From Tannockella kyphosi (GTDB lineage: Bacteria; Bacillota_I; Bacilli_A; Erysipelotrichales; Coprobacillaceae), in the NCBI RefSeq assembly GCF_021054785.1, contig NZ_CP088239.1:690001-722000 (forward strand): a stretch of DNA of 32,000 bases. Direction: 5' to 3'. The notes below the pieces were generated by a model, which did no database searches, was not told where the DNA came from, and saw only the letters and a list, made by a program, of their open reading frames with translations. Position 1 is the first letter of the stretch, and every line of letters starts with the position of its first letter. The position numbers and the translations under genes are program-made. Below, piece after piece: positions 1 to 25,607 of the stretch.

Positions 1-1
1 T

Positions 2-670: not shown

Positions 671-674
671 TCAA

Positions 675-8037: not shown

Positions 8038-8217
8038 ATGACAGAACAAACAGTAAAACCAGTGACCACTTCTCCCCCACAAGGTACATTTACTCACAAG
8101 ATAGGCAATACCACTTATGTTGTAGGTGTTCATTTTAGCAAAACCAGTAAAGAAACTATTGATGATAAAATTGAACGCTTAATCATTCAAGATTTAGAAA
8201 AACAAAGATACTTGTAA
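8038..8217 (+). CDS. tnpW: TnpW-family small protein (59 aa, not in ORF track)
   Basis: ATG after AAAGGAG. The product MTEQTVKPVTTSPPQGTFTHKIGNTTYVVGVHFSKTSKETIDDKIERLIIQDLEKQRYL is TnpW-like, with the (T)Y.V.VHFS.TSKET core. It is the last gene of the element, as in Tn4451. Confidence 0.7.
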   Translation: MTEQTVKPVTTSPPQGTFTHKIGNTTYVVGVHFSKTSKETIDDKIERLIIQDLEKQRYL

Positions 8218-8238
8218 TTCGGTCTTGACAAAACGCAC

Positions 8239-8673
8239 CCTAAAGGGAGTATCGTGATTGAGTGTGGGAAACTCTTACAACGCAAAGGATACAAAATTAA
8301 AATACTGAATACGATTAACTTCAAAAAATCAATGCACTATAACCCTTTTGCCTATATCCGAAGTGAAAAAGATATTTTAAAGTTGGTAACTACTTTAATG
8401 AAAAATACGCAAGGAGAACAAAAAGGTGGTGATGAATTTTGGACAAAAGCTGAAACACTACTGTACACAGCTTTAATCGGTTATATTTGGTACGAAGCTC
8501 CAAAAGAAGAACAAAACTTCAATACCTTGATTGAATTTATCAACGCAAGTGAAGTTCGTGAAGATGATGAAGATTTTAAAAATCCAGTAGATTTGATGTT
8601 TGATAAGCTCGAAGAAAAATCATCACAACACTTTGCTGTAAGGCAATACAAAAAATATAAACTTGCAGCAGGG
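8239..8673 (+). pseudogene. VirD4/TraG-like coupling protein (T4CP), internal fragment between elements A and B
   Basis: The frame is open from 8218 with no plausible N-terminus. It starts inside the (T)DPKG motif and ends ..FAVRQYKKYKLAAG at the element B junction. No Walker A is present, so the N-terminal part must lie upstream of element A. Confidence 0.75.
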
Positions 8674-8750
8674 GATATAAACTGTAATAGTAATCTTAAT
8701 CAATTACAAACAAGAATAGCCACGATAATGGCAGAAAGGAAGTGCTATTT

Positions 8751-8879
8751 ATGGACGATTTTAGAGAATGGTTACGCAAAGAGTGTACTTGTTGGTATCT
8801 TCTATCCCAAGAAGAACAAGACCAGTACTTCTCTCGTTGGTATGACGAAGTGCGTAACAGAAAGGAGAACACATCTTGA
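8751..8879 (+). CDS. small hypothetical protein (42 aa) overlapping the recombinase start
   Basis: MDDFREWLRKECTCWYLLSQEEQDQYFSRWYDEVRNRKENTS. Its TGA overlaps the recombinase TTG (TTGA). The RBS is weak (AAAGGA, 11 nt upstream). It is below the ORF-track size cutoff. Confidence 0.3.
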   Translation: MDDFREWLRKECTCWYLLSQEEQDQYFSRWYDEVRNRKENTS

Positions 8880-10732
8880 AAACGCAAATTACTGCACTGT
8901 ATGAGCGACTATCTCGTGATGATGAACAGCAAGGCGAAAGTAATTCTATCTCCAATCAAAAGCAAATGCTAGAAGATTATGCTTTAAAGAATGGTTTTGA
9001 TAACATTCGTCACTTTACAGATGATGGCTTTAGTGGTACTCGTTTTGATAGACCTGCTTTTTTAGATTTGCTAGAAGAAATTGAGCAAGGCAATGTTAAG
9101 ACTGTCTGCCTAAAAGATATGAGCCGAATTGGTCGTGATTATCTGCAAGTTGGGCAGTATATGGAGCTGTTACGACAACGTGGTGTAAGGCTTATTGCCA
9201 TCAATGACAATGTAGATAGCTTCAAGGGTGAGGACGATTTTACCCCCTTTAGAAACGTAATGAATGAGTTTTATGCAAGGGACACAAGCCGAAAAATTCG
9301 CTCTGTATTCCAAGCAAAAGGCAAAAGTGGTAAAAGGGTATCAAGTGCTATTCCCTATGGATATTTAAAAGACCCAAATGACAAGCATAAAATCATTATT
9401 GATGAAGTCGCTGCACCGATAGTAATGCGAATATTTCAAATGACTTTAGAGGGAAAGGGTCCATATCAGATTACAAAGATACTAGAGAATGAGTGTGTTC
9501 CAATACCTGCCTATCATCATCAAAAGTTAGGGATTGGCTTATGGAAAACACGAGAAATTCAATATCCTTATCGGTGGACAAGTTCCACAATCGCCAATAT
9601 ATTAAAACGTCAAGAATACTTAGGGCATACAGTGAATTTCAGAACACGCAAGCATTTCAAGGATAAAAAGAGTCATTATGTAGACGAGCAACACTGGTTA
9701 ATCTTTGAGAATACCCACGAGCCGATTATTGACCAAATCACTTATGAAAATGTGCAAAGAATACGCAGTAATGTCAAGAGATACCCTAACGGATGGGGCG
9801 AGGTAAATCCATTTACTGGACTACTCTATTGTGCTGATTGTGGTGCAAAACTTCATGGGCATAGGAATTGCAATAACAAGCCAGTTACATACTATGTATG
9901 TGCAAGTTATGGCAAACTTCCAGTAGGTACTTATTGTGCAAGTGGACATCGTATCAAAGAAGAAAACTTATTTGAATTGCTTAGAGAAACACTCAAAGGC
10001 ATCAAGAAAACCATTGATGATGATACAGCAACTTTTACTCTTGAAGTGCAAGAACGACTTGCAAATAAGCAGAATAAAGATGTTAAGGAGCAACAAAAAA
10101 GGCTTGCTATATGTAACAAACGATTAAGCGAATTGGAGCTACTTATTTCTCGTATTTATGAGGATAATATTTTTGGAAGATTGAATGATAAGAGGTATTA
10201 CACCCTTAACAATCAATACGAAAAAGAGCAACAAGAACTGGAAGAAGAAATCAAGCAATTAAGCGAGGTGGTATCTGCATTTGAAAGTGGTAAAAATGGA
10301 GCGAAACAGTTTGTTGATTTAATGGCAAAATATGATACTTTTGATGAACTCAATATTAAAATGATAAATGAGTTTGTAGAAAAAATCATTGTGCATGAAC
10401 GTGACCGAAAAGGTAGACAAGACACCACTCAAAGCATTGATATTTATTTCAATTTCATAGGACAGTTTGAATTAGAGTCAAAGCCTATGACAGATGAAGA
10501 ACTTGCAGAACAAAAGAAAATAGAAGAACGTAAAGACCGACTTCATCGCAATTATTTAAGGCGAAAAGAAAACGGAAGTCAAAAGGCTTGGGAAGAAAAA
10601 TACAAAGCAAAAAAACTTGCAAGAAAATCAGAACTTCAAGAGGAACTGCCACCTAAAGCAGGCATACCATTTGAAGAATACAAAGAAAGCATTCAAGATG
10701 AACAATTAGAAAGTAGGTACAATTATGTGTGA
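8876..10732 (+). CDS. large serine recombinase (element B)
   Basis: TTG start lies 8 nt after AAAGGAG. The catalytic N-terminus is ALYERLSRDDEQQGESNSISNQ. It also has a recombinase domain, a zinc-ribbon CADCGAKLH...YYVCASY, a coiled coil and a DUF4368-like tail. Confidence 0.9.
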   Translation: MKTQITALYERLSRDDEQQGESNSISNQKQMLEDYALKNGFDNIRHFTDDGFSGTRFDRPAFLDLLEEIEQGNVKTVCLKDMSRIGRDYLQVGQYMELLRQRGVRLIAINDNVDSFKGEDDFTPFRNVMNEFYARDTSRKIRSVFQAKGKSGKRVSSAIPYGYLKDPNDKHKIIIDEVAAPIVMRIFQMTLEGKGPYQITKILENECVPIPAYHHQKLGIGLWKTREIQYPYRWTSSTIANILKRQEYLGHTVNFRTRKHFKDKKSHYVDEQHWLIFENTHEPIIDQITYENVQRIRSNVKRYPNGWGEVNPFTGLLYCADCGAKLHGHRNCNNKPVTYYVCASYGKLPVGTYCASGHRIKEENLFELLRETLKGIKKTIDDDTATFTLEVQERLANKQNKDVKEQQKRLAICNKRLSELELLISRIYEDNIFGRLNDKRYYTLNNQYEKEQQELEEEIKQLSEVVSAFESGKNGAKQFVDLMAKYDTFDELNIKMINEFVEKIIVHERDRKGRQDTTQSIDIYFNFIGQFELESKPMTDEELAEQKKIEERKDRLHRNYLRRKENGSQKAWEEKYKAKKLARKSELQEELPPKAGIPFEEYKESIQDEQLESRYNYV

Positions 10733-11024
10733 TGTAGTATTAAAGGCAATATTTAATGGCGATATTCTCCCCTGGGAACAAAAAATTTCACGTTCTCCAA
10801 TCTATAAAGAATTGAGTAAGAAAATCGAAAAAGAGCGAGAGTTTTTTATGCGTGATATGAGCAAAGAGGAAAAAAATCGCTTTGATGATTACCATTGCTT
10901 GTTAATGGAACGCAATAGCGAAGAATTTAATAATTGTATGTTCCAAAACTTTATGCTTGGTATCTCTGTAGGAATGGAAGTCATAGAGGGAAAGCAAAAG
11001 ATAATTGAAGATTATGGAGTATGA
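10725..11024 (+). CDS. hypothetical protein occupying the tnpV position
   Basis: 99 aa. It overlaps the recombinase stop by 8 nt. I see no similarity to the TnpV copies in this window. Confidence 0.5.
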   Translation: MCDVVLKAIFNGDILPWEQKISRSPIYKELSKKIEKEREFFMRDMSKEEKNRFDDYHCLLMERNSEEFNNCMFQNFMLGISVGMEVIEGKQKIIEDYGV

Positions 11025-11030
11025 CAATGA

Positions 11031-11065
11031 GAGGTCGAGATCTTAACAGATTACGACCTCTTTTT
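11031..11065 (+). terminator. rho-independent terminator (copy of 1075-1109)
   Basis: Identical GAGGTCG...CGACCTC stem followed by TTTTT. Confidence 0.6.
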
Positions 11066-11096
11066 CTATCAAATTTTAATAAAGGAGCTTAAAGAA

Positions 11097-11396
11097 ATGG
11101 CAAAAAAATCAGTCATAGAACAAATCAAAGATACCCAAGAAGAAATCAATATTTTACAAGTGCAGAAGAAACAGCAGGAACATCAATTAGAGAAACACCA
11201 AGCGAGGGAACGAGAAAAAGAACGCAAAGAACGTACTCGCAAAAAGATTGAACGTGGTGCAATTATAGACAGTATGAACCCACAAATAGCGAGCTTGACT
11301 AATCAGCAGTTAAAGGTATTCTTGCAACAAGTATTGCAGAGTGAACGAGCATTACATTTGCTTAGTAAAATGACGGAAACCGAAAATGTGGGATAA
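11097..11396 (+). CDS. DUF3847-type small coiled-coil protein
   Basis: 99 aa, with one substitution relative to 1141-1440. Confidence 0.75.
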   Translation: MAKKSVIEQIKDTQEEINILQVQKKQQEHQLEKHQAREREKERKERTRKKIERGAIIDSMNPQIASLTNQQLKVFLQQVLQSERALHLLSKMTETENVG

Positions 11397-11546
11397 CTCC
11401 CTTGGTTACAAGGGCGCACTTATACACCATTTACAATGGTGCGTGCGTTCTGCGATGCAATGGGGAGCTACTCTCCCCAAACCCCTAGTGTACTTTACGA
11501 AACCGACTACACCTTGCGAGGTGTAGTCATTTTCATAAAGTCTGAT
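11397..11546 (-). other. MobQ-type oriT (second copy)
   Basis: Same inverted repeat (11425-11441) and the same TAAGTGCGCCCT core on the minus strand (plus-strand 11410-11422). Confidence 0.7.
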
Positions 11547-11565
11547 AAATCGAAAGGAGCAACTT

Positions 11566-13023
11566 ATGGCTATTTATCATTGTGCAATCAAAGTGATTAG
11601 TAGAGGAAAAGGCAAGTCTGCTGTTGCTTCATCTGCATATCGTAGTGGCTCTAAAATAACCAATGAATATGATGGAGAAACGCATGACTACACGCACAAA
11701 GGTGGTATTTATTCCAGTTGTATTTTACTACCCTCTCATGCCCCTGAAGAGTATACAGACCATAGCACTTTATGGAACGCAGTAGAGAAAATTGAAAAGG
11801 CAAAAAACAGTCAACTGGCAAGAGAAATTGAAGTATCAATACCGAAAGAAATCCCCTCACATCTATGGAAAAAAATGATGATTGATTATTGCAATGCTAA
11901 CTTTGTTTCAAAGGGTATGATTGCTGATTTGTCTATTCATAACAAAGACCCTAGCAACCCTCATTGCCATATCATGTTGACTATGCGACTTATAGAACAA
12001 GATGGAAAATGGGGAGCAAAATCACGCAAGATTTATGACCTTGACGAGAACGGACAGCGAATAAAACTTGCAAGTGGTAACTGGAAATCCCATAAACAAG
12101 ATACTACTGATTGGAACGAACAAACCAATGCAGAACTTTGGAGAGCAAACTGGAGTGAACATTGCAATCTCTACCTTGAACAATTAGGATACAGAGAACG
12201 TATCGACCACCGAAGTTATGAAAGACAAGGTGTTGACCAAATCCCATCTATCCATCTAGGAGTACAGGCAAGCCAAATGGAGCAAAAAGGAATTGTTACT
12301 GAAAGAGGAAATATCAACCGACAAATTGCAGAGGATAACAAGGAAAGTAAGATAATTAGGGCGAGAATTTCAAGGCTTATGAAGTGGCAACGAGAATTAA
12401 AAGCCAAGCCTTTAGACCTTGAAAAAGCAGACGTAAGAGCTTCTGTTATGGATAAATTACAAGCCAATAATGTTGTGGTAAAAAATCAATATCAAAGCCT
12501 TAAAGACCTTAAATCCAATGTGAGTGTATGGAACTTTATGCAGACACATAACATTCAAACAATGCAAGATTTTGCAAGTAAAATCAGCGAGCTAAACTCT
12601 AGTTTTTATACCATCAAACGAGAGCAGGCAGGTATTAAAAAGAAGATAGAAAACCTTGATAAACGATTAGAACTTTGGAGTGAATATCAAAAGTTAAGTC
12701 CTACTATAAAGCAGTACAATTCCCTAAAAGGCAAGGCAAAAGAACAGTTTTATAGCAAGCATAGAACAGAAATTGAACGTGTGCAAGAAATCGCAAATTC
12801 ATTGCAGAAATATGCAAATACTAAAGGAAAAATTAGTGTATCAGATTGGAGAAAGGAACACAGTTCTCTTATGCAAGATATTTCTTTGTGCGAGTGGAAA
12901 TTGAAAGCATTAAAACAAGAAATCGGTAATGCCGAAAAGGTGCAAAAGATACTAGAAGAAGAAAGAACTGGTGCAGATGTTCCAAAGCCAACTAAAGAGC
13001 GAGTGACGGAAACATCATTGTAG
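11566..13023 (+). CDS. MobQ-family relaxase (second copy)
   Basis: 485 aa, with 18 substitutions relative to 1610-3067. Tyr25 and the HNKDPSNPHCH motif are conserved. Confidence 0.9.
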   Translation: MAIYHCAIKVISRGKGKSAVASSAYRSGSKITNEYDGETHDYTHKGGIYSSCILLPSHAPEEYTDHSTLWNAVEKIEKAKNSQLAREIEVSIPKEIPSHLWKKMMIDYCNANFVSKGMIADLSIHNKDPSNPHCHIMLTMRLIEQDGKWGAKSRKIYDLDENGQRIKLASGNWKSHKQDTTDWNEQTNAELWRANWSEHCNLYLEQLGYRERIDHRSYERQGVDQIPSIHLGVQASQMEQKGIVTERGNINRQIAEDNKESKIIRARISRLMKWQRELKAKPLDLEKADVRASVMDKLQANNVVVKNQYQSLKDLKSNVSVWNFMQTHNIQTMQDFASKISELNSSFYTIKREQAGIKKKIENLDKRLELWSEYQKLSPTIKQYNSLKGKAKEQFYSKHRTEIERVQEIANSLQKYANTKGKISVSDWRKEHSSLMQDISLCEWKLKALKQEIGNAEKVQKILEEERTGADVPKPTKERVTETSL

Positions 13024-13052
13024 AAGTTGACAGCTTTTGGGTGTTTTATCAA

Positions 13053-13082
13053 TAGACTTTTCGTGCAAAGGTATGGTATAAT
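13053..13082 (+). promoter_or_regulatory. sigma-A-type promoter with extended -10, reading into the cargo
   Basis: TAGACT is followed by an 18 nt spacer whose last three nt are TGG, then TATAAT (13077-13082). It is positionally identical to 3097-3126. Confidence 0.45.
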
Positions 13083-13177
13083 TTTTACGAGTTAAAGATT
13101 ATTTTCATAATTTCTTGGCTTATAGAATTTACTAAAGAATGTACAGAATTTATATAATAGAAATGAGGTGTTAAAAT

Positions 13178-13477
13178 ATGATGTATGTTGTCATAAGTAT
13201 TATTTTAGGTTTAGGAGCTTGGTTATTACCATTAATAAATTTAATACAACAAAAGTATGATGAAAAATTCAACGGAATAAATGGATACTTGTCAATTGTT
13301 AGTTTTACTCTATGTTTAATGTCTATCTACTTCCAAATTCTACTAATGAAAAGTTATGGAGATGAATGGATTTTGGTTATAGACGCATTAGGTGCATTAA
13401 CTTTTGCAATGCCAGTTTTAATAGTCATAACAATTATTTTGAATTTATTAATAATAAAAAAATGCAATAAACGATAA
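13178..13477 (+). CDS. small membrane protein (99 aa, ~3 TM), unknown function
   Basis: GAGGTG RBS lies 7 nt upstream. Hydrophobic segments are VVISIILGLGAWLLPLI, LSIVSFTLCLMSIYFQILL and ALGALTFAMPVLIVITIILNLLI. Confidence 0.6.
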   Translation: MMYVVISIILGLGAWLLPLINLIQQKYDEKFNGINGYLSIVSFTLCLMSIYFQILLMKSYGDEWILVIDALGALTFAMPVLIVITIILNLLIIKKCNKR

Positions 13478-13808
13478 CTTGTATATTTATTATGAGTAGT
13501 AAGTTATCCGAGCTTTCTAGATAAACAAAGAGAGTACTTCGTTTTTTGAAGCACTCTCTAAATTTGTCTCAACCTAAATGAAAGGTTGGATAACTGTCAT
13601 TGAACTTAACCGCCGGAAATAGCCGATACACTATGGGGAAAGCAATTATCTTCTCCATGCTATTTTACGGATAAGCAGTATTATAAATCAGAAAAATGAG
13701 TGAGAAACCTATCTTTTTATACTGATTTTTAGTAAAATGGGCATAGCAAAGCTAACCTGACCTTAAATCAGATTTTATAAAAAGATGGGGATCTTTCGAA
13801 TATTCAGT

Positions 13809-14897
13809 TTAGGCAGTAAGTGGAGGAGCTAATCCCATACGGATTATTCCATCATATCCACAGCTTTTGCAAACAGTAGGTTTTCTACCAAGGAGTTTGA
13901 TTAATAATTCCTCTGTAGAGAGCCTTTTGCTTTCTGTAAATGTATTTGTCATCGCTTTACAAAGTGGCAGTTTTAATTGTTTTCCACGACTAGAGAGAAA
14001 TCCAAAATGTCGTATCTTCATGAATCCTTGTGGCAGGATATGCATTAAGAATCTACGGATAAATTCAATCGCAGTAAGTGTCATTTCCTTCCACCTGTTA
14101 CAATCAGAATAATCTCGCCATTTAAACGTAACATTTCCTCCTTTAAGTTTTAGGATTCTGTTATTTGAGATAGCAATTCGATGTGTGTACCTACCGAGAT
14201 ATTCCACTACACATGCTGCTGTTTTAAAAGGTGGCTTACAGTAAACAATCCATTCTTTGTTATAACAAATATTCAATATATCCTTTGAAATATCGGGCTT
14301 CAATTCTTTTAGTAATGCAAGATATTTACCACGAAACTTACGTGATAGAACTTTTACAGGTAAGAAAAACTTTTTCTTGGAGTTAATCCAAAAGCCTTGT
14401 TTGGATAGACCACCAGCTGGAATAATACAGTGTAAATGCGGATGGAAAGAAAGATTTTGTCCCCATGTATGAAGCACTCCAGTAAAACCAATATCAGCAC
14501 CAAGATATTCACTATCTCTAGTGAGTTCTCTTAATGTTTCTTTTACACATCGAAATAATAGGTTGTAGCAATCACGTTGATTAGCATATATAGTAGTATT
14601 TAATTCAGCAGGAACTGTAAATACCACATGAAAATATCCAACATTTAGTAAATCCATTTTTCTAGCATCAATCCATTTTTCCTTGGATAACGTTTGACAT
14701 TTGGGACAATGTCTGTTGCGACAAGAATTATAGGATTGACTGACTTCGCCACAACTAGGACACACATCCATATGTCCACCAAGTTTTGCAGTACGACAAT
14801 CAGAAATAGCATGAATTGCTTTATACTGAACATTGGATGGATGATGGGAGATTAAATAGTCTTGCATATGAGCAAGAAAGATATCTTGTATTTCCAT
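13809..14897 (-). CDS. IS91-family HUH Y2 transposase
   Basis: N-terminal zinc-binding domain (CRTAKLGGHMDVCPSCG...CRNRHCPKCQ), HUH-like HTWGQNLSFHPHLHCIIPAGG, and the C-terminal Tyr region YLGRYTHRIAISN. Confidence 0.85.
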   Translation of the reverse strand: MEIQDIFLAHMQDYLISHHPSNVQYKAIHAISDCRTAKLGGHMDVCPSCGEVSQSYNSCRNRHCPKCQTLSKEKWIDARKMDLLNVGYFHVVFTVPAELNTTIYANQRDCYNLLFRCVKETLRELTRDSEYLGADIGFTGVLHTWGQNLSFHPHLHCIIPAGGLSKQGFWINSKKKFFLPVKVLSRKFRGKYLALLKELKPDISKDILNICYNKEWIVYCKPPFKTAACVVEYLGRYTHRIAISNNRILKLKGGNVTFKWRDYSDCNRWKEMTLTAIEFIRRFLMHILPQGFMKIRHFGFLSSRGKQLKLPLCKAMTNTFTESKRLSTEELLIKLLGRKPTVCKSCGYDGIIRMGLAPPLTA

Positions 14898-15793
14898 TAT
14901 TTATTACCTTTGGACTTTCTTTTGGTTTCTTTCTCCATAAGTTTGTCTAAAGGGCTTTTAGTTTTCATAACATCGGTCATTGAAATTCTCAGATATCGCA
15001 TGGTAGTCCAAAGAGTGGCATGACCAAGGATTTTCTGTATGTAGAATACATTAACACCGTCTTCCATAAGATGGGTAGCATAGCTATGACGAAGTGTATG
15101 TACCGTTCCATAAGTAGGAATTCTACCTCTTATATGGTATCGTTTAAAAGCATCTTGAATAGCACGTTCAGAAATAGGTGCATCACCACAGCCATTAATA
15201 CCATTTAAGAATAAATATCCATCTGGATGTTTCGGTTTATATTCAAGATAGTAGGTACATAAATCATCGTAGGCAAATTTAGAAAGAGGAACCCAACGAT
15301 CTCGCTGCCCTTTACCTTGATAAACGAATAATCGCATCTGCTGTTTATCAATATCTTTAATACGGAGATGACGAACTTCAGATAATCTTAAACCACATCC
15401 ATAAGTTAGAGAAAAAATAGCTTTGTAGCGTGTACTGTCATCGATTGCTTCTAAAAACCATAAAACTTCTTGTCGTGTAAACGCAACAGGCACTTTAATA
15501 GGATCTTTCTTGCGAGGTAATCTTCGATAACAAAGTGTTTGTTCTAGTGTTACTTCAAAGAAAAATCGTAAAGCACTATTGTATACATTCATAGTCGAGG
15601 GTTGAATATTCGCTTCCTTGTCTAAATATTCAAGATAAATACGAAAATCATTTTCACAAAGTTCTTCAATAGGTTTATTGAAGTGTTGTAGGAATTTTCG
15701 TGCTTTTGTTTGATATTCTAACATGGTATGAGGGCTCATTCCTCTTAATTGAATATCAGTTTCCAGTTTCTTCAATGCTTCTTCATGTGTCAT
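14897..15793 (-). CDS. tyrosine recombinase associated with the IS91-family transposase
   Basis: The start MTHEEALKKL follows AAGGAG. The track extension to 15988 has no RBS. Catalytic signature is GLRLSEV ... HTLRHSYATHL ... LGHATLWTTMRYL. Confidence 0.8.
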   Translation of the reverse strand: MTHEEALKKLETDIQLRGMSPHTMLEYQTKARKFLQHFNKPIEELCENDFRIYLEYLDKEANIQPSTMNVYNSALRFFFEVTLEQTLCYRRLPRKKDPIKVPVAFTRQEVLWFLEAIDDSTRYKAIFSLTYGCGLRLSEVRHLRIKDIDKQQMRLFVYQGKGQRDRWVPLSKFAYDDLCTYYLEYKPKHPDGYLFLNGINGCGDAPISERAIQDAFKRYHIRGRIPTYGTVHTLRHSYATHLMEDGVNVFYIQKILGHATLWTTMRYLRISMTDVMKTKSPLDKLMEKETKRKSKGNK

Positions 15794-15970
15794 AATAAAA
15801 ATCTCCTTTAAATTTGTATTTGTAGTTTTGCTACATTTACATTTTAAAGGAGAACGTGTAGAATGAGAAGAAAAGAGCCACCGCGTAGGCGGTTTAGTTC
15901 TATGAGCATAATATTTATGCATCGTAAAAAAGAAGTACGAATAAAATTTATATACTGGAAAGAGGTTATC

Positions 15971-16159
15971 ATGAAAAATAACGAACATAAATATTTGAGC
16001 TATGGGATAAGTTTCGGTATGTTAGCTGGAGCAACTTTAGGATTAACTATCGGTATCTTTGGATTAGCTATTGGTGCAGGCATAGGTATGTTGTTAGGCA
16101 TTGTCATTGGAACTACTATTGACCATAGTAAGAATAAAAAAGATAATGACGATAAATAA
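15971..16159 (+). CDS. small glycine-zipper membrane protein (62 aa)
   Basis: ATG at 15971 after AAGAGG. GMLAGATLGLTIGIFGLAIGAGIGMLLGIVIGTTI contains repeated GxxxG, followed by a charged tail. Confidence 0.5.
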   Translation: MKNNEHKYLSYGISFGMLAGATLGLTIGIFGLAIGAGIGMLLGIVIGTTIDHSKNKKDNDDK

Positions 16160-16294
16160 TTTCACCGTCTATTATGAGCATTGAACGGTATAAGGGATTG
16201 CTTACCCTTTTAAGTAGGCTAAGAAACATAACCTCGAAGTAACAATTTATTAGAGGTTGAGTAAATTTTATATAATGAATGGAGGACATTTTTC

Positions 16295-16687
16295 ATGGAG
16301 GATAAGAAAAAACGGATAATAGCACTTGTGTTTATAGGGTTAGCTTTTGTAAGTTGTGGTATGTTTCCGTTCGTGAACTTAACTAAAGAGAATCCAATAA
16401 GAATGGAAATTATTCAATGGGTGATAGTTGTTAATTCTATTGCATTTTATTATTATTTTGGTAAGCTTGAAGCAAAGGTGTTTTCTCAAAAGTCTATTAT
16501 ATTTGTAGCTTCGTTTAATTCAACAGCTACCTTTGTTGGGCTTGGAAGCCGATTTTTATTAGAATTTGGAGAAGTATCTAACGTTTATAATTTTACACTT
16601 CCAAATATTGTTTTACAGTTATGTGTTTCAATAACGCTAACTTGTGGAACATGGTTCTTTTATAAACGAGTTGCTGAAAAAGAATAA
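16295..16687 (+). CDS. membrane protein (130 aa, ~4 TM), unknown function
   Basis: GGAGGA RBS lies 8 nt upstream. There are four hydrophobic segments. Confidence 0.6.
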   Translation: MEDKKKRIIALVFIGLAFVSCGMFPFVNLTKENPIRMEIIQWVIVVNSIAFYYYFGKLEAKVFSQKSIIFVASFNSTATFVGLGSRFLLEFGEVSNVYNFTLPNIVLQLCVSITLTCGTWFFYKRVAEKE

Positions 16688-16771
16688 GAATCACTATGTT
16701 ACTATTATGAGCATAATAGAAACGACCACAAATAAGAGATTATAAACAAAATAACGCTAATTAGTACGCAG

Positions 16772-16800
16772 AGGACGGATCAAAGATGATTCGTCCTTTT
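16772..16800 (+). terminator. rho-independent terminator at the end of the cargo region
   Basis: AGGACGGATC pairs with GATTCGTCCT (one G-U), followed by TTTT. It is homologous to 5338-5370. Confidence 0.5.
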
Positions 16801-16829
16801 CGTATGTAAAAAACGAAAGGACAAAACCA

Positions 16830-17576
16830 ATGGCAGACAATAGAAAATATTACTACCTCAAGCTAAAAGAAAGTTATTTTGATGATGATAGTATTATCTT
16901 ACTTGAGAGTATGCAAGATGGAATACTCTATTCATATATCCTCTTGAAACTGTATTTAAAGTCGCTTAAACACGATGGCAAGCTACAACTAGATGACCAT
17001 ATCCCCTACAATGCTCAAATGATAGCAACGATTACAAGACAACAAGTAGGAACTATCGAACGAGCATTGCAGATATATGAGAAATTAGGACTTGTAGAAA
17101 TTCTTGAAGATAGCACATTTTACATGAGTAACATCGAGCTTTTTATTGGAAAATCTTCCACAGAGGGAGAACGAAAAAGACGTGCTAGAAACGGAAATAT
17201 TAAGCAAAAACAGTTAGGTGGACAAATGTCCACCCCTATCTTGGACAAATGTCCACCAGAGATAGAGAGAGAGAAAGAGATAGAGATAGAGTTAGAGAAA
17301 GAGAGAGAGTTAGAAAAGGGACATCACACACAGATTTATGGAAAATATCAAAATATTTCATTGACAGATGAAGAACTGGAGCGATTAAAACAAGAACTAC
17401 CCTCACTCTATCAAAAGTACATTGAGAAGCTAAGCGAATATATGGCAAGTACTGGCAAGACTTACAACAGCCATATTGCCACCATACGCAAATGGGCAAA
17501 GGAAGATATGGAAAAGAACGCAAACATCAAGAACGCACCACGCACCTATGAATATGACGAAAATAAGAGCCTATAA
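16830..17576 (+). CDS. phage replisome-organizer / DnaD-like replication initiator (paralog)
   Basis: The first ~140 aa differ at only 3 positions from 6354-7109 and similarity stays high to about residue 215. Only the last ~35 aa diverge. Confidence 0.75.
   Translation: MADNRKYYYLKLKESYFDDDSIILLESMQDGILYSYILLKLYLKSLKHDGKLQLDDHIPYNAQMIATITRQQVGTIERALQIYEKLGLVEILEDSTFYMSNIELFIGKSSTEGERKRRARNGNIKQKQLGGQMSTPILDKCPPEIEREKEIEIELEKERELEKGHHTQIYGKYQNISLTDEELERLKQELPSLYQKYIEKLSEYMASTGKTYNSHIATIRKWAKEDMEKNANIKNAPRTYEYDENKSL
17217..17317. repeat. palindromic repeats plus GAGA/GATA-rich tract (candidate ori, copy 2)
   Basis: GGTGGACAAATGTCCACC (17217-17234), an 8 nt gap, then GGACAAATGTCCACC (17243-17257). 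The GA-rich tract is two codons longer than in element A. Confidence 0.4.
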
Positions 17577-17595
17577 CGCAAAGGAGTATTGAAAA

Positions 17596-18435
17596 ATGGA
17601 GAAATATATTAAAACCGTAGTAAATGGCATAGAAAAGGCAAATAGCGAACCTACGGACTATCTGAATGAGGTTGATAGCCTTATGTATTGTGGTAAATGC
17701 CACACACCCAAACAAAAACGATTTGACAAGCCATTTATTGATGGGAAAGATACAGTGCCTATCCCTTGTGAGTGTCGTTCCAAGGAAATTGAAGAAGAAC
17801 GCAGACAAGAGGATTTAAGAAAACATTATCAGACAGTAGACCGACTTCGTTCGCAAGGTATCAGAGATAAAAAGATATTGGAGTGGATATTTGACAATGA
17901 TACCACCCAAAGCAAGCAGATTGATATTGCAAAAGGATATGTTGCTAATTTCGAGCATATCAAGGCAAACAATGTTGGTATGCTACTATGGGGAAATATT
18001 GGTACTGGTAAAAGTTTTGTCGCTGGGTGCATTGCCAATGCACTGATCGACAAGGAAATATCCGTATGCGTTACGAACTTTGGAACTATCCTTGCTGATA
18101 TGATGAACTTGAAAATAGATAAAAACGAATATATCCAAAGGTTAAATCGAAACAGCCTACTCATTATTGATGATTTTGGAATGGAACGAGATACCTCATT
18201 TGCCTTAGAACAGATTTATAACGTCATAGACAGCCGTTATATCGCTTCTAAGCCCTTAATCGTGACAACTAACCTATCTCTATCAGAAATGCAAGACAAG
18301 AGCGTACAGATCGATTACAGACGCATATACGACCGAGTGCTAGAGATGTGCGTGCCTATCTTCTTCGAGGGCGAGAGCAAACGCAAGGACAGAGCAACCG
18401 AAAAATTGAATAAACTGAAAGAAATCTTAGGCTAA
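17596..18435 (+). CDS. DnaC/IstB-like AAA+ ATPase with N-terminal Cys4 zinc ribbon (paralog)
   Basis: CGKC...CEC, GNIGTGKS, LLIIDDFGMER. Confidence 0.8.
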   Translation: MEKYIKTVVNGIEKANSEPTDYLNEVDSLMYCGKCHTPKQKRFDKPFIDGKDTVPIPCECRSKEIEEERRQEDLRKHYQTVDRLRSQGIRDKKILEWIFDNDTTQSKQIDIAKGYVANFEHIKANNVGMLLWGNIGTGKSFVAGCIANALIDKEISVCVTNFGTILADMMNLKIDKNEYIQRLNRNSLLIIDDFGMERDTSFALEQIYNVIDSRYIASKPLIVTTNLSLSEMQDKSVQIDYRRIYDRVLEMCVPIFFEGESKRKDRATEKLNKLKEILG

Positions 18436-18476
18436 TGGCTTTTATTGACTACAAAATCAGTAAGAGCCATTTTTTT
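18434..18476 (+). terminator. rho-independent terminator (copy of 7966-8008)
   Basis: Same stem and T-run, at an offset of 10468 nt. Confidence 0.5.
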
Positions 18477-18505
18477 ATGCCCAAATTTAGAAAGGAGCAG
18501 ACTAT

Positions 18506-18685
18506 ATGACAGAACAAACAGCAAAACCAGTGACCACTTCTCCCCCACAAGGTACATTCTCCCATAAAATTGGTGGAATTACCTACAACGTCAATGTGCA
18601 TTTCAATCAAAAGACTAGCGAAACACTAGCTGATAAAATCAAGCGAATGGTATTAGCTGATTGTGATAATTACAAGAAAATTTAG
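18506..18685 (+). CDS. tnpW: TnpW-family small protein (59 aa, not in ORF track)
   Basis: MTEQTAKPVTTSPPQGTFSHKIGGITYNVNVHFNQKTSETLADKIKRMVLADCDNYKKI. It is the last gene before the right end of element B. Confidence 0.7.
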   Translation: MTEQTAKPVTTSPPQGTFSHKIGGITYNVNVHFNQKTSETLADKIKRMVLADCDNYKKI

Positions 18686-18720
18686 CTTAGTGATTAAAAA
18701 GCCCTTGACAATTAGCATCG

Positions 18721-19539
18721 GGTAAAACAGCAAAGTCAATTCTTATTTCATGTGGTGCAAGACTTGCTCCATTTGATATAAAAGAATTACGAGATGTTAC
18801 AGAATATGATGAATTGGAATTAGATAAATTAGGTGATGAAAAAACAGCACTCTTTATCATCATTAGTGATACCGATGCTACGTTCAACTTTCTTGTATCC
18901 ATGTGCTATACCCAACTGTTCAATCTACTTTGTGATAAAGCTGATGATGTATATGGTGGTAGGCTTCCAATTCATGTGCGTTGCTTGATTGATGAATGTG
19001 CCAATATTGGACAGATACCAAACTTAGAAAAGTTAATGGCAACGATCCGTTCTCGTGAGATTTCAGCTTGTCTTGTATTGCAGGCACAGTCACAATTAAA
19101 AGCCTTGTATAAGGATAATAGTGACACAATAATCGGCAACTGCGATAGCATGGTTTTCTTGGGTGGTAAGGAAAAAACAACACTCAAAGATTTAACGGAA
19201 ACAATGGGAAAAGAAACCATTGATAGTTACAACACTTCTGATACAAGAGGTACACAACGAAGTTATGGATTGAATTATCAGAAGCTTGGTAAAGAGCTAA
19301 TGAGTATGGATGAACTAGCTGTTATGGATGGTGGAAAATGCGTTCTTCAGCTTAGAGGTGTTCGACCATTCTTTAGCAACAAATACGATATTACCAAGCA
19401 CCCTAATTACAAGTATTTATCTGATTTTGATAAGAGAAATACCTTTGACATAGAGAAGTTTTTATCAACAAAACTAAAGCTCAAAGCAAATGATGTTTTT
19501 GAAAGTTACGATTTGCAAAACTTAGAAACACAGCAATAA
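18721..19539 (+). pseudogene. VirD4/TraG-like coupling protein, C-terminal fragment
   Basis: The frame is open from 18709 (same frame class as 8239-8673). It reads GKTAKSILISCGARLAPFDI..., with Walker B-like IHVRCLIDECANIG and a conserved tail SMVFLGGKEKTTLKDL. There is no start codon or RBS of its own. Confidence 0.8.
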
Positions 19540-19699: not shown

Positions 19700-19912
19700 A
19701 TGGCATTTTTTACACAAGCAGTTACAGTATTACAAACATTAGTTATCGCACTTGGTGCAGGTCTTGGTATTTGGGGTGTTATCAACTTACTAGAAGGTTA
19801 TGGTAATGATAATCCCGGTGCAAAGTCACAAGGTATGAAACAACTCATGGCTGGTGGTGGCGTAGCACTTATCGGCACAACACTTGTACCAATTTTAAGC
19901 ACATTATTTTAA
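19700..19912 (+). CDS. Maff2-family small membrane protein
   Basis: 70 aa, two TM helices. It has the motif NLLEGYGNDNPGAKSQGMKQLMAGGG and a GGAGG RBS. Confidence 0.75.
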   Translation: MAFFTQAVTVLQTLVIALGAGLGIWGVINLLEGYGNDNPGAKSQGMKQLMAGGGVALIGTTLVPILSTLF

Positions 19913-19923
19913 GGTAAGACTAT

Positions 19924-20787
19924 ATGGACTCAATCCTAGAAGCAATCAATGAGTGGATGCAGGCTCTGCTCATTGACGGCATTATGGGTAATGTTGAGGG
20001 GATGTTCGATACAGTAAATGCAGAAGTTAGCAGTGTAGCAAGTCAAGTAGGAATGACACCATCGGCATGGAACAGTGGTGTCTTTTCCTTGATCCAAAAC
20101 TTATCGAATTCCGTTATCATGCCTATTGCCGGACTAATTTTAACATTTGTTATGACCTACGAGCTTATACAAATGATTATCGACAGAAATAATTTAAACG
20201 ACTTTCCACCGTCTGATATTTTCAAGTGGATTATGAAAACCTTTATTGCAGTTACGATTGTGACCAATACATTCCCGATAGTAATGGGAATATTTGATGT
20301 ATCACAAAGTGTGGTTAATAGTGCAGCAGGAGTAATTATCACCGATACCAGTGTTAGTGTAGATAATTTAGATACCTTTAGAACTTCTTTAGAAGCTATG
20401 AATATAGGTGCTTTACTCGGCTTGTATTTACAAAGTTTCTTAATTGGTTTTTGTATGAACATTTTGACTATTTGCATTTTCATTATTGTGTATGGTCGTA
20501 TGATTGAAATTTATCTTATGACTTCTCTTGCTCCAATTCCACTTGCTACCATGACTTGCAAAGAATGGAATATCGGACAAAATTATATTAAATCTATGCT
20601 TGCACTAGCATTCCAAGCATTCCTCATTATGGTATGTATTGGTATCTATGCTGTTCTCGTGCAGTCTATTGTAATTAGTGGTGAACCATTTGCTGCTATA
20701 TGGACTTGTGTAGGTTATACAGTCTTACTTTGCTTTGCACTTTTCAAGACTGGAACACTATCAAAAACAATTTTCTCAGCACATTAA
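19924..20787 (+). CDS. VirB6/TrbL-like polytopic T4SS membrane protein (CD1112-type)
   Basis: 287 aa, about 6 TM helices. Its position between Maff2 and PrgI is typical for this ICE family. Confidence 0.7.
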   Translation: MDSILEAINEWMQALLIDGIMGNVEGMFDTVNAEVSSVASQVGMTPSAWNSGVFSLIQNLSNSVIMPIAGLILTFVMTYELIQMIIDRNNLNDFPPSDIFKWIMKTFIAVTIVTNTFPIVMGIFDVSQSVVNSAAGVIITDTSVSVDNLDTFRTSLEAMNIGALLGLYLQSFLIGFCMNILTICIFIIVYGRMIEIYLMTSLAPIPLATMTCKEWNIGQNYIKSMLALAFQAFLIMVCIGIYAVLVQSIVISGEPFAAIWTCVGYTVLLCFALFKTGTLSKTIFSAH

Positions 20788-20800
20788 GGAGGTGTAAACA

Positions 20801-21238
20801 ATGGCTTATGTGCCAATCCCAAAAGATTTATCTAATGTCAAAACGAAGGTCATGTTTAACCTTACGAAACGACAACTTATATGCTTTTCTATTGCAGGTG
20901 TAGTAGGAGTACCAGTCTTTTTTCTTACGAAAGACTTTGTAGGGACAAGTACAGCAGTTTTACTTATGATGTTTGTCATGTTCCCTATGTTCATGTTTGC
21001 AATGTATGAAAAGCACAACCAACCCTTGGAAGTTATCCTAAAAAACTATTACAATGTAAGATTTGCAAACCCTAAAAAACGACCTTACATGACGGATAAT
21101 TTCTATAACATTTTAGAAAGGCAAGACAAACTAGATAAGGAGGTAACAGAAATTGTCAAACAACAAAAAACGCAAACTAACTCGTGCAGAACAAAAACAT
21201 CTAAATCAAGCACTAGAAAGAGCAAGAAACAAGCCTAA
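20801..21238 (+). CDS. PrgI-family (VirB3-like) membrane protein
   Basis: MAYVPIPKDLSNVKTKVMFNLTKRQLICF followed by two TM helices. The 3' end overlaps the virB4-like start by 86 nt. Confidence 0.75.
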   Translation: MAYVPIPKDLSNVKTKVMFNLTKRQLICFSIAGVVGVPVFFLTKDFVGTSTAVLLMMFVMFPMFMFAMYEKHNQPLEVILKNYYNVRFANPKKRPYMTDNFYNILERQDKLDKEVTEIVKQQKTQTNSCRTKTSKSSTRKSKKQA

Positions 21239-23543
21239 AGGTGTGAAATCAGCACAAGACTCTATTCCATTTGATAGAATGTTTACAGATGGAATTTGTC
21301 GTGTGACAGATACCTTATATACTAAGACATTGCAATTTTCAGATATTAACTATCAGATTGCTCAAAATGAGGATAAGACAGCTATCTTTGATGGGTGGTG
21401 TGATTTTCTCAACTACTTTGATAGCTCCATTAAATTTCAGCTATCTTTTGTAAATAGCACAGCAAGTATTCGTGAATATGAAAACAGTATTTTCATTGCT
21501 CCACAAAAAGATGAATTTGATAGTATCAGAACTGAATATGCAGATATGCTACACAATCAACTCTCTCGTGGTAACAATGGACTTACAAAAACAAAATATC
21601 TAACCTTTGGTATTGATGCTGAAAATATCAAAATTGCCAAACCTCGATTAGAACGAATTGAAAATGACTTGAAAAATCAGTTTAAGAAATTAGGGGTACG
21701 CACCTACTCTTTGAATGGGAAAGAACGATTGAAGTTATTCCATAATATTCTTAGAATGGATGGCAACGAGCCTTTTTTCTTTGACTGGAAATGGCTTGCT
21801 CCAAGTGGCTTGAATGTCAAAGATTTTATTGCTCCGTCCTCATTTGAGTTTAAAGATAAGCATACATTTAAAACTGGAGATAAAGTTGCAACAGCATCAT
21901 TTTTACAAGTGTTAGCTCCCGAACTCAATGATCGTGTATTATCCGACTTCCTAGAAATCGAAAGTAATTTAGTTTGTACCATGCACATTCAGTCGCTAGA
22001 CCAAATGAAAGCTATTAAGACAGTCAAGCGAAAACTGACGGATTTGCAACGTATGAAAATTGAGGAACAGAAAAAAGCTGTTAGATCGGGATATGATATG
22101 GATATTTTACCAACAGACCTTGCTACTTATGGTGTGGAAGCGAACAAAATCCTTGCCGACTTACAAAGTAGGAATGAAAGAATGTTCCTTATCACATTTA
22201 CCATTGTCAACTCAGCGAATGACAAGAAAACACTTGATAACACCATGCTACAAGCAAGTGGTATTGCCAACAAACATAACTGTCAACTTATTAAACTTGA
22301 TTATCAGCAGGAGCAAGGCTTTATGTCCTCACTTCCATTGGGACAAAACCTTATCCCTATTCAACGAAGTTTGACAACCACAAGCACAGCAATCTTTGTT
22401 CCATTTACAACGCAGGAGTTGTTCCAATCGGGTGGCGAAGCACTTTACTATGGTTTAAATGCTCTATCTAATAATCTTATCATGGTGGATAGAAAACAAC
22501 TGAAAAACCCGAATGGACTTATCTTAGGTACTCCCGGTGCAGGTAAATCATTCTCAGCCAAGCGAGAAATTACCAATGTATTTCTGATTACAAATGATGA
22601 TATTATCGTGTGTGATCCCGAAGGAGAATATTTCTCATTGGTACAGCGATTAAATGGACAGGTTATTAAAATCTCACCCACAAGTAACCAATATATTAAC
22701 CCAATGGATATTAATCTTAACTATTCCGAAGATGACTCACCACTTGCATTAAAAAGTGATTTTATTCTTTCTCTTTGTGAGCTGATCGTTGGAGGGAAAG
22801 ACGGATTGACACCAGTAGAAAAATCAATCATTGACCGATGTGTAACCAGTATTTACACCGAATACCTTGCTGATCCTAACCCTATTAAAATGCCTATCTT
22901 AGAAGATTTATATAATGCTCTTGGCAAGCAGGAAGAAAAAGAAGCAAAGCATATTCGTTCTGCTCTTGAAATCTATGTTACTGGTAGCTTAAATGTATTT
23001 AATCATCGTACCAATGTAGATATTGAAAATCGTCTTGTGTGTTTCGATATTAAGGAACTTGGTAAACAGCTTAAAAAATTAGGTATGCTCATTGTACAAG
23101 ACCAAGTTTGGAATAGAGTTACCAAAAATAGAGCTGAAAAGAAATCTACTCGCTACTATATGGATGAGTTCCATTTGCTCCTAAAAGAAGAACAAACAGC
23201 AGCATACAGTGTTGAGATTTGGAAACGATTTAGAAAATGGGGTGGTATTCCGACAGCTATTACACAAAATGTTAAAGACCTTTTATCTTCACGAGAAGTT
23301 GAGAATATCTTTGAAAACTCTGACTTTGTGTATATGCTTAATCAAGCAGCAGGCGATAGAGAAATTCTTGCAAAGCAACTAAATATTTCATCACATCAAC
23401 TTTCTTATGTAACTGGTAGTGGTGTTGGTGAAGGACTTCTGTTTTACGGAAATGTTATCTTGCCTTTTGTAGATAAGTTCCCACAAGATACAGAGCTTTA
23501 CAAGATTATGACCACAAAGTTGGTTGAAACCTCAGTAGAATAG
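21153..23543 (+). CDS. VirB4-like conjugative transfer ATPase (CD1110-type)
   Basis: TTG start lies 9 nt after TAAGGAGG. 796 aa, with Walker A GTPGAGKS and Walker B-like YYMDEFH. Confidence 0.9.
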   Translation: MSNNKKRKLTRAEQKHLNQALERARNKPKGVKSAQDSIPFDRMFTDGICRVTDTLYTKTLQFSDINYQIAQNEDKTAIFDGWCDFLNYFDSSIKFQLSFVNSTASIREYENSIFIAPQKDEFDSIRTEYADMLHNQLSRGNNGLTKTKYLTFGIDAENIKIAKPRLERIENDLKNQFKKLGVRTYSLNGKERLKLFHNILRMDGNEPFFFDWKWLAPSGLNVKDFIAPSSFEFKDKHTFKTGDKVATASFLQVLAPELNDRVLSDFLEIESNLVCTMHIQSLDQMKAIKTVKRKLTDLQRMKIEEQKKAVRSGYDMDILPTDLATYGVEANKILADLQSRNERMFLITFTIVNSANDKKTLDNTMLQASGIANKHNCQLIKLDYQQEQGFMSSLPLGQNLIPIQRSLTTTSTAIFVPFTTQELFQSGGEALYYGLNALSNNLIMVDRKQLKNPNGLILGTPGAGKSFSAKREITNVFLITNDDIIVCDPEGEYFSLVQRLNGQVIKISPTSNQYINPMDINLNYSEDDSPLALKSDFILSLCELIVGGKDGLTPVEKSIIDRCVTSIYTEYLADPNPIKMPILEDLYNALGKQEEKEAKHIRSALEIYVTGSLNVFNHRTNVDIENRLVCFDIKELGKQLKKLGMLIVQDQVWNRVTKNRAEKKSTRYYMDEFHLLLKEEQTAAYSVEIWKRFRKWGGIPTAITQNVKDLLSSREVENIFENSDFVYMLNQAAGDREILAKQLNISSHQLSYVTGSGVGEGLLFYGNVILPFVDKFPQDTELYKIMTTKLVETSVE

Positions 23544-23553
23544 GTGGTGTTCT

Positions 23554-25323: not shown

Positions 25324-25343
25324 AGAAAGGCAGGTTTTATTAG

Positions 25344-25607
25344 ATGAACGCAAAAATTAAAAAGGTTATTAAGGAAATTGATAACACAGAGCAGAAAATT
25401 GCAGAATTTCAAGAAAGATTAAAACAGCTAAATCAAGAAAAAGTAGATTTAGAAAATCTTGAAATTATCGGTATGGTTAGAGGAATGAAAGTAACAACTT
25501 ATGATATTGAAAATGTTATGAAATCATTTACTGATTTTTATAAAAATGGAGCTTCTTTAAAACAAGAAGATAAAAAGAAAATGGAGGATATTATTGATGA
25601 AGATTAA
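25344..25607 (+). CDS. DUF4315-type small coiled-coil protein
   Basis: 87 aa. KIKKVIKEIDNTEQKIAEFQERLKQLNQEKVDLENLEIIGMVRGM is the typical pattern for this family. Confidence 0.65.
   Translation: MNAKIKKVIKEIDNTEQKIAEFQERLKQLNQEKVDLENLEIIGMVRGMKVTTYDIENVMKSFTDFYKNGASLKQEDKKKMEDIIDED

Follow-up and report, generated by a model that had tools for sequence, protein, structure and literature searches.

At a locus of Tannockella kyphosi, two integrative and mobilisable elements (IMEs), here called A and B, divide the gene for a VirD4-like type IV coupling protein (T4CP) of the CD1115 family into three pieces, each of them intact. The locus was analysed in a stretch of 32,000 nucleotides (contig NZ_CP088239.1, positions 690,001 to 722,000 of the forward strand), hereafter the window. 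The interrupted gene belongs to an integrative and conjugative element (ICE), which, judged by its gene content, is of the Tn1549/CTn4-CTn5 type and lies partly in the window. Each IME was inserted by its own large serine recombinase at a fixed site of the T4CP gene, and we hold it to be quite probable that both would be able to leave again and to transfer with the help of the ICE, by the mechanism set out below.

A coupling protein gene in three pieces

A list of open reading frames (ORFs), together with Pfam and NCBIfam scans, divides the forward strand of the window into element A, element B and the conjugation module of the ICE, and coupling-protein sequence is found as two stretches sited between these three blocks (Table 1). 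The first stretch lies in ORF 8254-8904, which a sequence-only reading of the window had held not to be a gene. This proved correct: the TnpW gene of element A, of 59 amino acids (aa), has its stop codon TAA at 8215-8217, so that the open frame starts at 8218; it reads (FGLDKTH)PKGSIV...YKKYKLAAG (in sequence letters from 8218, THPKGSIVIECGKLL and on to YKKYKLAAG) before it enters the end of element B and continues as DINCNS..., which is not T4CP sequence. Its T4CP part begins inside the (T)DPKG motif just past the right end of element A, and from PKGS onward it matches intact T4CPs with no gap. T4CP sequence restarts at 18721 as GKTAKSILISCGARLAPFDI and runs from there to the stop codon at 19537-19539.

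Conceptual joining of 8218-8672 to 18723-19542 gives a continuous frame of 1275 nucleotides (nt). At the DNA level, the intact gene of a related locus (L001:6311-8077) aligns with the two window pieces at offsets of 1412 and 11462, and the insert between them therefore measures exactly 10050 nt, the length whose removal had been proposed to restore the frame. That 10050 is divisible by three is incidental, since the insert is full of stop codons. From PKGS onward, the joined protein is 86-92% identical to intact T4CPs of 586-597 aa over 98-100% of its length (E = 1e-257), the best match having 92% identity and covering 100% of the query. Intact homologues of 588 aa align with it gap-free, and an alignment of nine sequences contains neither gaps nor extra residues at KLAAG/KTAKS or behind TDPKG, so that the suggested check against intact homologues leaves no residue unaccounted for at either junction.

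The N-terminal piece, which had been expected upstream of element A, lies outside the window and was taken from an overlapping public contig (L003, JAWXUP010000021.1), part of the metagenome-assembled genome 'Clostridia bacterium FM_52_G117_V'. This contig was found by scanning a genome collection with the recombinase A fragment, and its last 891 bases (10000-10890) are 100% identical to window positions 1-891. Exact-protein look-ups, by comparison, gave no record for the relaxase of element A or for recombinase B, and placed the sigma factor of A only on contigs shorter than 2 kb. The piece (L003 8291-8827, 178 aa) comprises the transmembrane region and the Walker A motif GGSGSGKT, ends in SSYVVTDPKG/YNI followed by a stop codon, and is preceded by a DUF3801 (PcfB-like) gene, as in Tn1549-family ICEs.

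Combined, the three pieces form an ORF of 588 aa with no internal stops, and the fragments are free of frameshifts. The rebuilt protein matches NF045973 (conju_CD1115) with 570.2 bits (cut-off 250) in a single stretch that spans positions 1-442 of the 442 in the profile, and the coupling protein is also matched by the Pfam families T4SS-DNA_transf, TraG-D_C and TrwB_AAD_bind. Score and coverage place it in the CD1115 family; as it stands, however, the gene is in three pieces rather than a single uninterrupted gene with its Walker A motif, and it is therefore best described as disrupted and potentially restorable. No host bases have been lost or gained at either insertion, so the three pieces are exactly rejoinable. 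The insertion points are 144 codons apart in the numbering of P0001, in good agreement with the first estimate of about 145.

Crossover sites and identity of the inserts

Element B interrupts the Gly codon of KLAAG/KTAKS at its GG. A 2-nt staggered cut and the reading frame together leave GG as the sole possible crossover, the only dinucleotide that fits attL, attR and frame, as the sequence-only reading had suggested. In more than 45 distinct host backgrounds, each with its own attL junction, the host side of this site varies synonymously but has GG as its last two bases throughout, and the element end next to it is constant.

For element A, attL (AACTGACCCTAAAGG/TTACAAT) and attR (AAACGCACCCTAAAGG/GAGTATC) have a 10-nt core, ACCCTAAAGG, in common, and its crossover is therefore unreadable from the window locus alone. 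The third base of the Pro codon was tallied across relatives instead. In one type of A element it is G in 20 and A in 4 of the attL sites, and A in 16 and G in 1 of the attR sites; at unoccupied DPKG sites it is G in 31, C in 16, A in 7 and T in 3. From this tally we infer that A-type elements cross over at the AA of the Lys codon in TDPKG, which corresponds to 8242-8243 in the window. CC was rejected as the A-type crossover, the Pro third base being variable with the host in attL and constant for each element type in attR. Both inserts resemble IMEs that target traG/VirD4, with a repeat of GG for B and of AA, inside the 10-nt identity, for A.

Each element has its own large serine recombinase gene adjoining one of its ends. 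The gene of B starts 204 nt from attL, and that of A, complete only in L003 (8870-10669, 599 aa), about 56 nt from attL. Their best NCBIfam matches all fall far below the cut-offs: for recombinase A these are CcrB (109 bits) and then XisF (96 bits), and for recombinase B it is XisF (114 bits, with a curated cut-off of 375). Each element also carries its own relaxase and a candidate origin of transfer (oriT), and no VirB4, type IV secretion system (T4SS) or coupling protein gene of its own; Pfam and NCBIfam scans found T4SS domains in none of the ORFs of 1-8236 or 8673-18722. The candidate oriT is marked by the 12-mer TAAGTGCGCCCT, which we take to be the nic core of RSF1010/R1162-type MobQ oriTs; it has exact matches in the window only at 1455-1466 and 11411-11422, where 0.03 matches are expected by chance. 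The presence of a MobQ relaxase and the absence of T4SS and T4CP genes identify A and B as IMEs, and their gene content indicates a backbone of the Tn6104/Tn4451 type.

The two IMEs are related but distinct, as had been proposed. Their recombinases are about 42% identical in amino-acid sequence and their att arms differ. Nucleotide comparison by blastn aligns 1069-3126 with 11025-13082, a block of 2058 bp that is 97.7% identical and contains the DUF3847-like gene, the candidate oriT and the MobQ relaxase gene, and the replication blocks (16815-18558 on the B side) are 86.6% identical. With recombinases of about 42% identity, so similar a mobilisation block points to a recent exchange of modules, or to gene conversion, between IMEs that resided together.

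An intein, an intron and a programmed frameshift were rejected as explanations of the split gene, as the inserts are 9.4-10 kb long, contain many genes and are bounded by serine-recombinase att sites. An Rfam scan of the whole window found no RNA family, which likewise means that the inserts are not introns.

Recurrence of both insertions in other genomes

About 60 genome loci have an A-type recombinase, with 45-74% identity to that of element A, at the DPKG site; in these, a T4CP fragment ends at residue 173-177 just upstream and the gene restarts at residue 170-173, 8.5-12 kb downstream. A search with recombinase B led to 84 fetched loci (the metagenome set having 57-60% identity, and a scan of viral contigs contributing only 4 loci), and 67 of these 84 have a T4CP fragment next to the recombinase gene, nearly always ending at residue 317, about 100 nt upstream. 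The A-type and B-type loci together show both recombinase lineages to be site-specific across many genomes. In other occupied loci (L009, L017, L026, L029, L050 and L056), the C-terminal part of the T4CP forms a single uninterrupted alignment.

Both sites are occupied together in at least seven other genomes (L004, L010, L018, L019, L023, L027 and L072), so the layout is common. L004 is the complete chromosome of Chakrabartyella piscis, whose recombinases are 74% (A) and 96% (B) identical to those of the window.

Two simpler accounts of the double insertion can be weighed against these data. The first is that the assembly is chimeric, joined at the two near-identical 2-kb blocks, and that the real genome has one element only or has them in other places. 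L003 does break off 224 nt beyond the end of recombinase A and about 175 nt short of the common block, which fits a repeat-induced break. In the window and L003 combined, however, the order of N-terminal fragment, A, middle fragment, B and C-terminal fragment is consistent, and both ends of each element match the same T4CP position, whereas exchange at the repeat would leave the left end of A matched with the right end of B and disrupt the colinearity of the T4CP. With double occupancy also seen in the complete chromosome L004 and six other genomes, a chimera is barely credible.

The second account is that elements of this kind insert at many dinucleotide sites, as Tn4451 does, and met in one gene by chance. 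Tn4451 uses numerous GA sites (PMC5704250), and megaplasmids of Campylobacter coli carry a B-type relative at a GG that belongs to no T4CP gene (L168 11896-23013, NZ_CP066028.1). This site nevertheless resembles the T4CP attB (TTGCAnAGGTA), as is expected of a secondary site, and the approximately 60 A-type and 67 B-type loci each agree in position down to the codon across T4CP genes of great diversity, which leaves low-specificity transposition very improbable. On these comparative data, assembly chimera and chance co-insertion are effectively excluded, and insertion by site-specific recombinases is the reading adopted here. The C. coli copy carries aminoglycoside phosphotransferase genes, including aph(3')-VIIa, and is an instance of a Firmicutes IME in a Campylobacterota plasmid.

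Evidence for excised forms comes from a 'plasmid' record of Subdoligranulum variabile, OY725856.1 (L167), which is circular, measures 8.5 kb and encodes a B-type recombinase of 55% identity. Its junction consists of a right end, a G-run and a left end, and is within one G of the attP predicted from the C. coli copy, which has a 94-95% identical backbone. By its junction, then, OY725856.1 is an excised B-type IME, and free circles of B-type relatives exist. The plasmid collection contained no circular A-type record closer than 46% identity.

Other insertions were observed in the same gene. In L027, L039, L056 and L075 a further serine-recombinase element, about 42% identical to recombinase B, cuts the T4CP near residue 96-100 (about 98), upstream of the A-type element at DPKG; an example is L039 (2347-4377 and 8597-8830). 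A T4CP gene with the residue-98 element can be cut by up to three IMEs. A group II intron of 2.7 kb is present at residue 243 in L127 (3726-6463; RF02004 145.8 bits, RF00029 52.9 bits), with an insert at the same residue in L118, L131, L137, L152 and L163, and in L083 the gene is interrupted close to residue 160 by a different insert of about 2.5 kb.

Comparison with known nested elements

This layout is already known from Clostridioides difficile and from streptococci, and the basic phenomenon and a working hypothesis were published between 2011 and 2017. In C. difficile R20291, the CTn5-like ICE Tn6103 harbours three mobilizable transposons, of which Tn6104 and Tn6105 lie in ORF 1743 and Tn6106 in ORF 1776; they carry TnpX-like recombinases, TnpV and mobilisation genes, MobA/MobL being named for Tn6104 (Brouwer et al., 2011, PMC3158075). 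That Tn6104 leaves Tn6103 as a circle, with a 2-bp repeat, was shown by polymerase chain reaction (PMC3158075); its target is traG (VirD4), and it too has a replisome organiser and DnaC (PMC5704250). The window resembles Tn6103 in its CTn5-like host, in the presence of two serine-recombinase elements in one ORF and of a third in another ORF of the conjugation module. The elements at the two loci have in common a TnpX-like recombinase, TnpV, a MobA/MobL relaxase, sigma-factor cargo and a 2-bp junction repeat, and differ in host lineage, cargo and size (9.4 and 10 kb in the window, 15.6 and 15.8 kb in C. difficile); the likeness is drawn from the published description.

In Streptococcus constellatus C1050, IME_Sco1050_traG_site1 and site2 are two IMEs at two sites of one traG (PMC5704250, PMC5357655). 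These are likewise serine-integrase IMEs at internal sites of a VirD4 gene with a replisome organiser, but they reside in streptococcal hosts and an ICE of the Tn5252 superfamily, and were compared with A and B by description only; the available parts of PMC5357655 and PMC5704250 do not address a junction promoter or the crossover dinucleotides of the streptococcal traG IMEs. Coluzzi et al. (2017, PMC5357655) have proposed that IMEs are made to excise when conjugation is induced and that the conjugation gene is restored in this way. More recently, Guédon et al. (2025, PMC12084326) reported that Tn1549-family ICEs in Firmicutes of the gut harbour nested MOBQ2 IMEs with DUF3847 and TnpV, as many as three or four to one ICE.

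Tn4451 has the gene set tnpX, tnpV, mob and tnpW, and, as A and B would, it relies on a lone large serine recombinase for excision and insertion, with a 2-bp crossover and a recombinase promoter from the circle junction. It differs in its MobV (TnpZ) relaxase and its low target specificity, at GA in many sites (PMC5704250), whereas A and B have MobQ, a replication module, strict codon-level specificity for the T4CP gene and AA and GG crossovers. Elements A and B thus do not belong to the Tn4451/Tn4453 family proper, as they carry MobQ and not MobV and have strict and not loose targets.

Large serine recombinases are also known to restore interrupted genes by excision in the skin element (SpoIVCA, in sigK), the fdxN element (XisF) and the Listeria comK prophage. 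Precise excision by a large serine recombinase and restoration of a coding sequence are what A and B would share with these systems; at the window locus, by contrast, the host gene is that of another mobile element and the inserts themselves would be conjugatively transferable.

A putative circle-junction promoter and a model for reversible insertion

The rebuilt attP of A contains TTGACA-17-TACAAT, a near-consensus arrangement with its -35 box from the right end and its -10 box from the left end of the element. Corresponding motifs (TTGAC(A/T) or TTGCAT, a spacing of 16-17 nt, and TATAAT, TACAAT or TACACT) are present in the rebuilt attP of all 27 A-type relatives for which both element ends are available, in addition to A itself, and the rebuilt attP of B contains TTGACA-17-TAAACT. 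As far as sequence can tell, the promoter of the recombinase gene is therefore assembled across the circular junction, as in elements of the Tn4451 type. Going by the title of their paper of 2000, as cited in PMC13023037, Lyras and Rood reportedly found that the circular form of Tn4451 creates the TnpX promoter.

In the integrated state, the recombinase genes lie on the T4CP strand directly downstream of the T4CP fragments, and neither promoter-like nor terminator-like sites were found on the forward strand between the fragment ends and the recombinase starts. In consequence, the integrated elements are likely to owe their recombinase to transcripts that read through from the ICE operon.

These features can be assembled into a model. 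The integrated IMEs would inactivate the T4CP and hence block ICE transfer, and transcription of their recombinase genes would come mostly from the conjugation operon of the ICE, by read-through. Excision catalysed by the recombinases, for which a directionality factor appears unneeded in this family, would rebuild the T4CP gene and release circular IMEs; the Tn4451 recombinase TnpX (TndX in the text of the review) works in both directions without such a factor (PMC5704250). Circularisation would unite the right-end -35 box with the left-end -10 box and so create a strong recombinase promoter, as in Tn4451. The circles would replicate by means of the replisome organiser and the DnaC-like protein, and the MobQ relaxase would nick them at oriT for export through the rebuilt T4CP and the T4SS of the ICE. 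Finally, the IMEs would reinsert at the same T4CP sites in donor or recipient. All three T4CP fragments being free of stops and frameshifts, and the C-terminal part being uninterrupted in other occupied loci, the insertions are likely still reversible.

Several points weigh against this model. Excision, T4CP rebuilding and transfer at this locus are themselves deduced, and a 21-mer of the predicted attP of B has no match in the viral contigs. Since a third IME is inserted in the topoisomerase III gene of the ICE, full ICE function would need three excisions. The left arm of attB, GTNACNGAYCC, resembles the left arm of attP, so that conservation of TTGACA may partly reflect recombinase binding, and TTGACA may be in part a recombinase half-site and not solely a -35 box. 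The -10 box of the B-type junction is weak (4/6), and the proposal of read-through is drawn solely from the absence of consensus signals.

The main alternative is dead-end decay, in which a defective ICE remnant serves as a landing pad, excision is not coordinated, the T4CP is never rebuilt and the IMEs use other ICEs. It would accommodate the interruption of topoisomerase III by the third IME, the IS91-type unit nested in B and the 2-kb direct repeat of 97.7% identity between A and B, across which homologous recombination could remove the middle piece of the T4CP; in Tn6103, moreover, transfer of the ICE and excision of Tn6105 and Tn6106 were not detected (PMC3158075), which also counts against the model proposed above. 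Against decay stand the T4CP pieces, recombinases, relaxases and downstream conjugation genes, all of them intact ORFs, the perfect att cores and the equal intactness of other occupied loci, and we regard it as unlikely.

The host ICE and the gene content of the window

The conjugation module follows the gene order of L001, and the backbone order DUF3801, VirD4, Maff2, TrbL_2, PrgI, VirB4 is that of the Tn1549 family (PMC12084326). At 28144-31823 of the window, its topoisomerase III gene is interrupted by the third serine-recombinase IME, which passes the right window end: the topoisomerase ORF ends after 471 aa, the Topoisom_bac match covering positions 2-330 of 411, and the L001 homologue has 697 aa. 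Window positions 31422-31650 and 658-891 are 81% identical. Directly upstream of its intact T4CP gene, L001 has a Tad/Flp-like pilus gene set (271-5810; Peptidase_A24, RcpC, T2SSE ATPase), in place of which the ICE of the window, as seen in L003, has ParB-like, DUF6017 and DUF3801 genes. Within element B, an IS91-type unit (13809-15988, reverse strand) consists of a transposase gene with Y2_Tnp and Zn_Tnp_IS91 domains that abuts a tyrosine recombinase gene.

Table 1. Features of the window, with predicted recombination products (positions are those of the window unless stated otherwise)
Feature	Position	Strand	Remarks
Element A (block 1)	1 to about 8246	+	9431 bp; right end at about 8246
Large serine recombinase A, 3' part	1..670	+	222 codons; DUF4368 match; L003 overlap 100% identical
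TnpV-family gene, A	654..1064	+	PF14198, E = 3.6e-35
DUF3847-like small coiled-coil gene, A	1141..1440	+	adjoins relaxase gene; PF12958 weak, under curated cut-off
Candidate oriT nic core, A	1455..1466	-	TAAGTGCGCCCT; 145 nt upstream of relaxase gene
MobQ (MobA/MobL) relaxase, A	1610..3067	+	PF03389, E = 1.9e-92; NF041496 MobQ 263 bits, cut-off 200
ECF-type sigma factor, A cargo	3282-3782	+	domain scan
zf-HC2 putative anti-sigma factor, A cargo	3775-4317	+	
YfjL-like protein, A cargo	4277-5107	+	
XerC-like tyrosine recombinase, A	5395..6348	+	PF00589, PF02899
Replisome organiser, A	6354-7109	+	
DnaC/IstB-like ATPase, A	7122-7967	+	
TnpW-family gene, last gene of A	8038..8217	+	59 aa; PF14202, E = 2.1e-15
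TTGACA, right end of A	8225..8230	+	putative -35 half of circle-junction promoter
attR core of A	8237..8246	+	ACCCTAAAGG; identical to attL core, L003 8805-8814
Middle T4CP fragment	8247-8672	+	residues about 173-317 (about 176-317 past common PKG core); own start codon absent
GG crossover copy, attL of B	8671..8672	+	GCAGCAGG / GGATATAAAC
Element B (block 2)	8673..18722	+	10050 bp, one GG copy included; gene plan of block 1 repeated
Large serine recombinase B	8876..10732	+	618 aa; Resolvase, Recombinase, Zn_ribbon_recom, DUF4368 domains
DUF6809 gene, B	10725-11024	+	DUF6809 match
DUF3847-like gene, B	11097-11396	+	within block 97.7% identical to A
Candidate oriT nic core, B	11411..11422	-	TAAGTGCGCCCT; 145 nt upstream of relaxase gene
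MobQ relaxase, B	11566..13023	+	within 2058-bp block 11025-13082
IS91-family (Y2) transposase, nested in variable region of B	13809-14897	-	PF04986, PF14319
Tyrosine recombinase, variable region of B	14897-15988	-	PF00589; abuts IS91-family transposase
Replisome organiser, B	16830-17576	+	homology to A module
DnaC-like ATPase, B	17596-18435	+	homology to A module
TnpW-like last gene of B	18506..18685	+	59 aa; homologous to 8038-8217
TTGACA, right end of B	18705..18710	+	
GG crossover copy, attR of B	18721..18722	+	TTAGCATCGGG / TAAAACAGC
C-terminal T4CP fragment	18723-19539	+	residues 318-588 and stop; TraG-D_C / TrwB_AAD_bind region
ICE conjugation module, Tn1549/CTn4-5 type (block 3)	19700..29559	+	block runs from 19700 onward; gene order as L001
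Module genes, in order	within 19700..29559	+	Maff2, TrbL_2/VirB6, PrgI/VirB3, VirB4-like ATPase, CHAP hydrolase, DUF4315, CD1107-like
Module genes, end	within 19700..29559	+	DUF3991-Toprim, Bro-N/ANT, truncated topoisomerase III
DUF4368 recombinase, third element	29593-31434		613 aa
TnpV, third element	31437-31823		
Predicted rebuilt attB junction of A			AACTGACCCTAAAGGGAGTATC / GTCGTAACTGACCCTAAAGGGAGTATCGTG
Predicted attP junction of A			TTGACAAAACGCACCCTAAAGGTTACAATATATAAGG
Predicted rebuilt attB junction of B			GCAGCAGGTAAAACAGC / AAACTTGCAGCAGGTAAAACAGCAAAG
Predicted attP junction of B			TTGACAATTAGCATCGGGGGATATAAACTG

Implications

For annotation, ORF 8254-8904 and ORF 18814-19539 are to be treated as pieces of one T4CP and not as callable genes, and the defect of the ICE should be recorded as conditional rather than permanent. 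The locus provides a clean, fully intact case of IMEs nested in the T4CP gene of a gut-type Clostridia ICE. Relative to the portions of the published text available, the comparative data go somewhat further in the codon-exact AA and GG crossovers, in the attP-split promoter of all examined relatives and in the recurrent double occupancy, and they yield concrete, testable predictions on how hitch-hiking elements couple their excision to helper conjugation.

A broader concept can be put forward tentatively, although we think it rather doubtful as yet. The T4CP gene of Tn1549-type ICEs might act as a multi-lock, several recombinase lineages having each become adapted to a conserved codon of its own, at about residue 98, at DPKG (173-176) and at AG/K (317), with a group II intron site at 243, such that ICE transfer would be the logical AND of all IME excisions, triggered by read-through from the ICE operon and locked by a promoter that exists only in the circles. 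If this were true, the hitch-hiking IMEs would force the ICE to take them along whenever it transfers, and such a circuit would have its first comparative evidence in the conserved split promoter and in the recurrent co-occupancy by A and B across genera.

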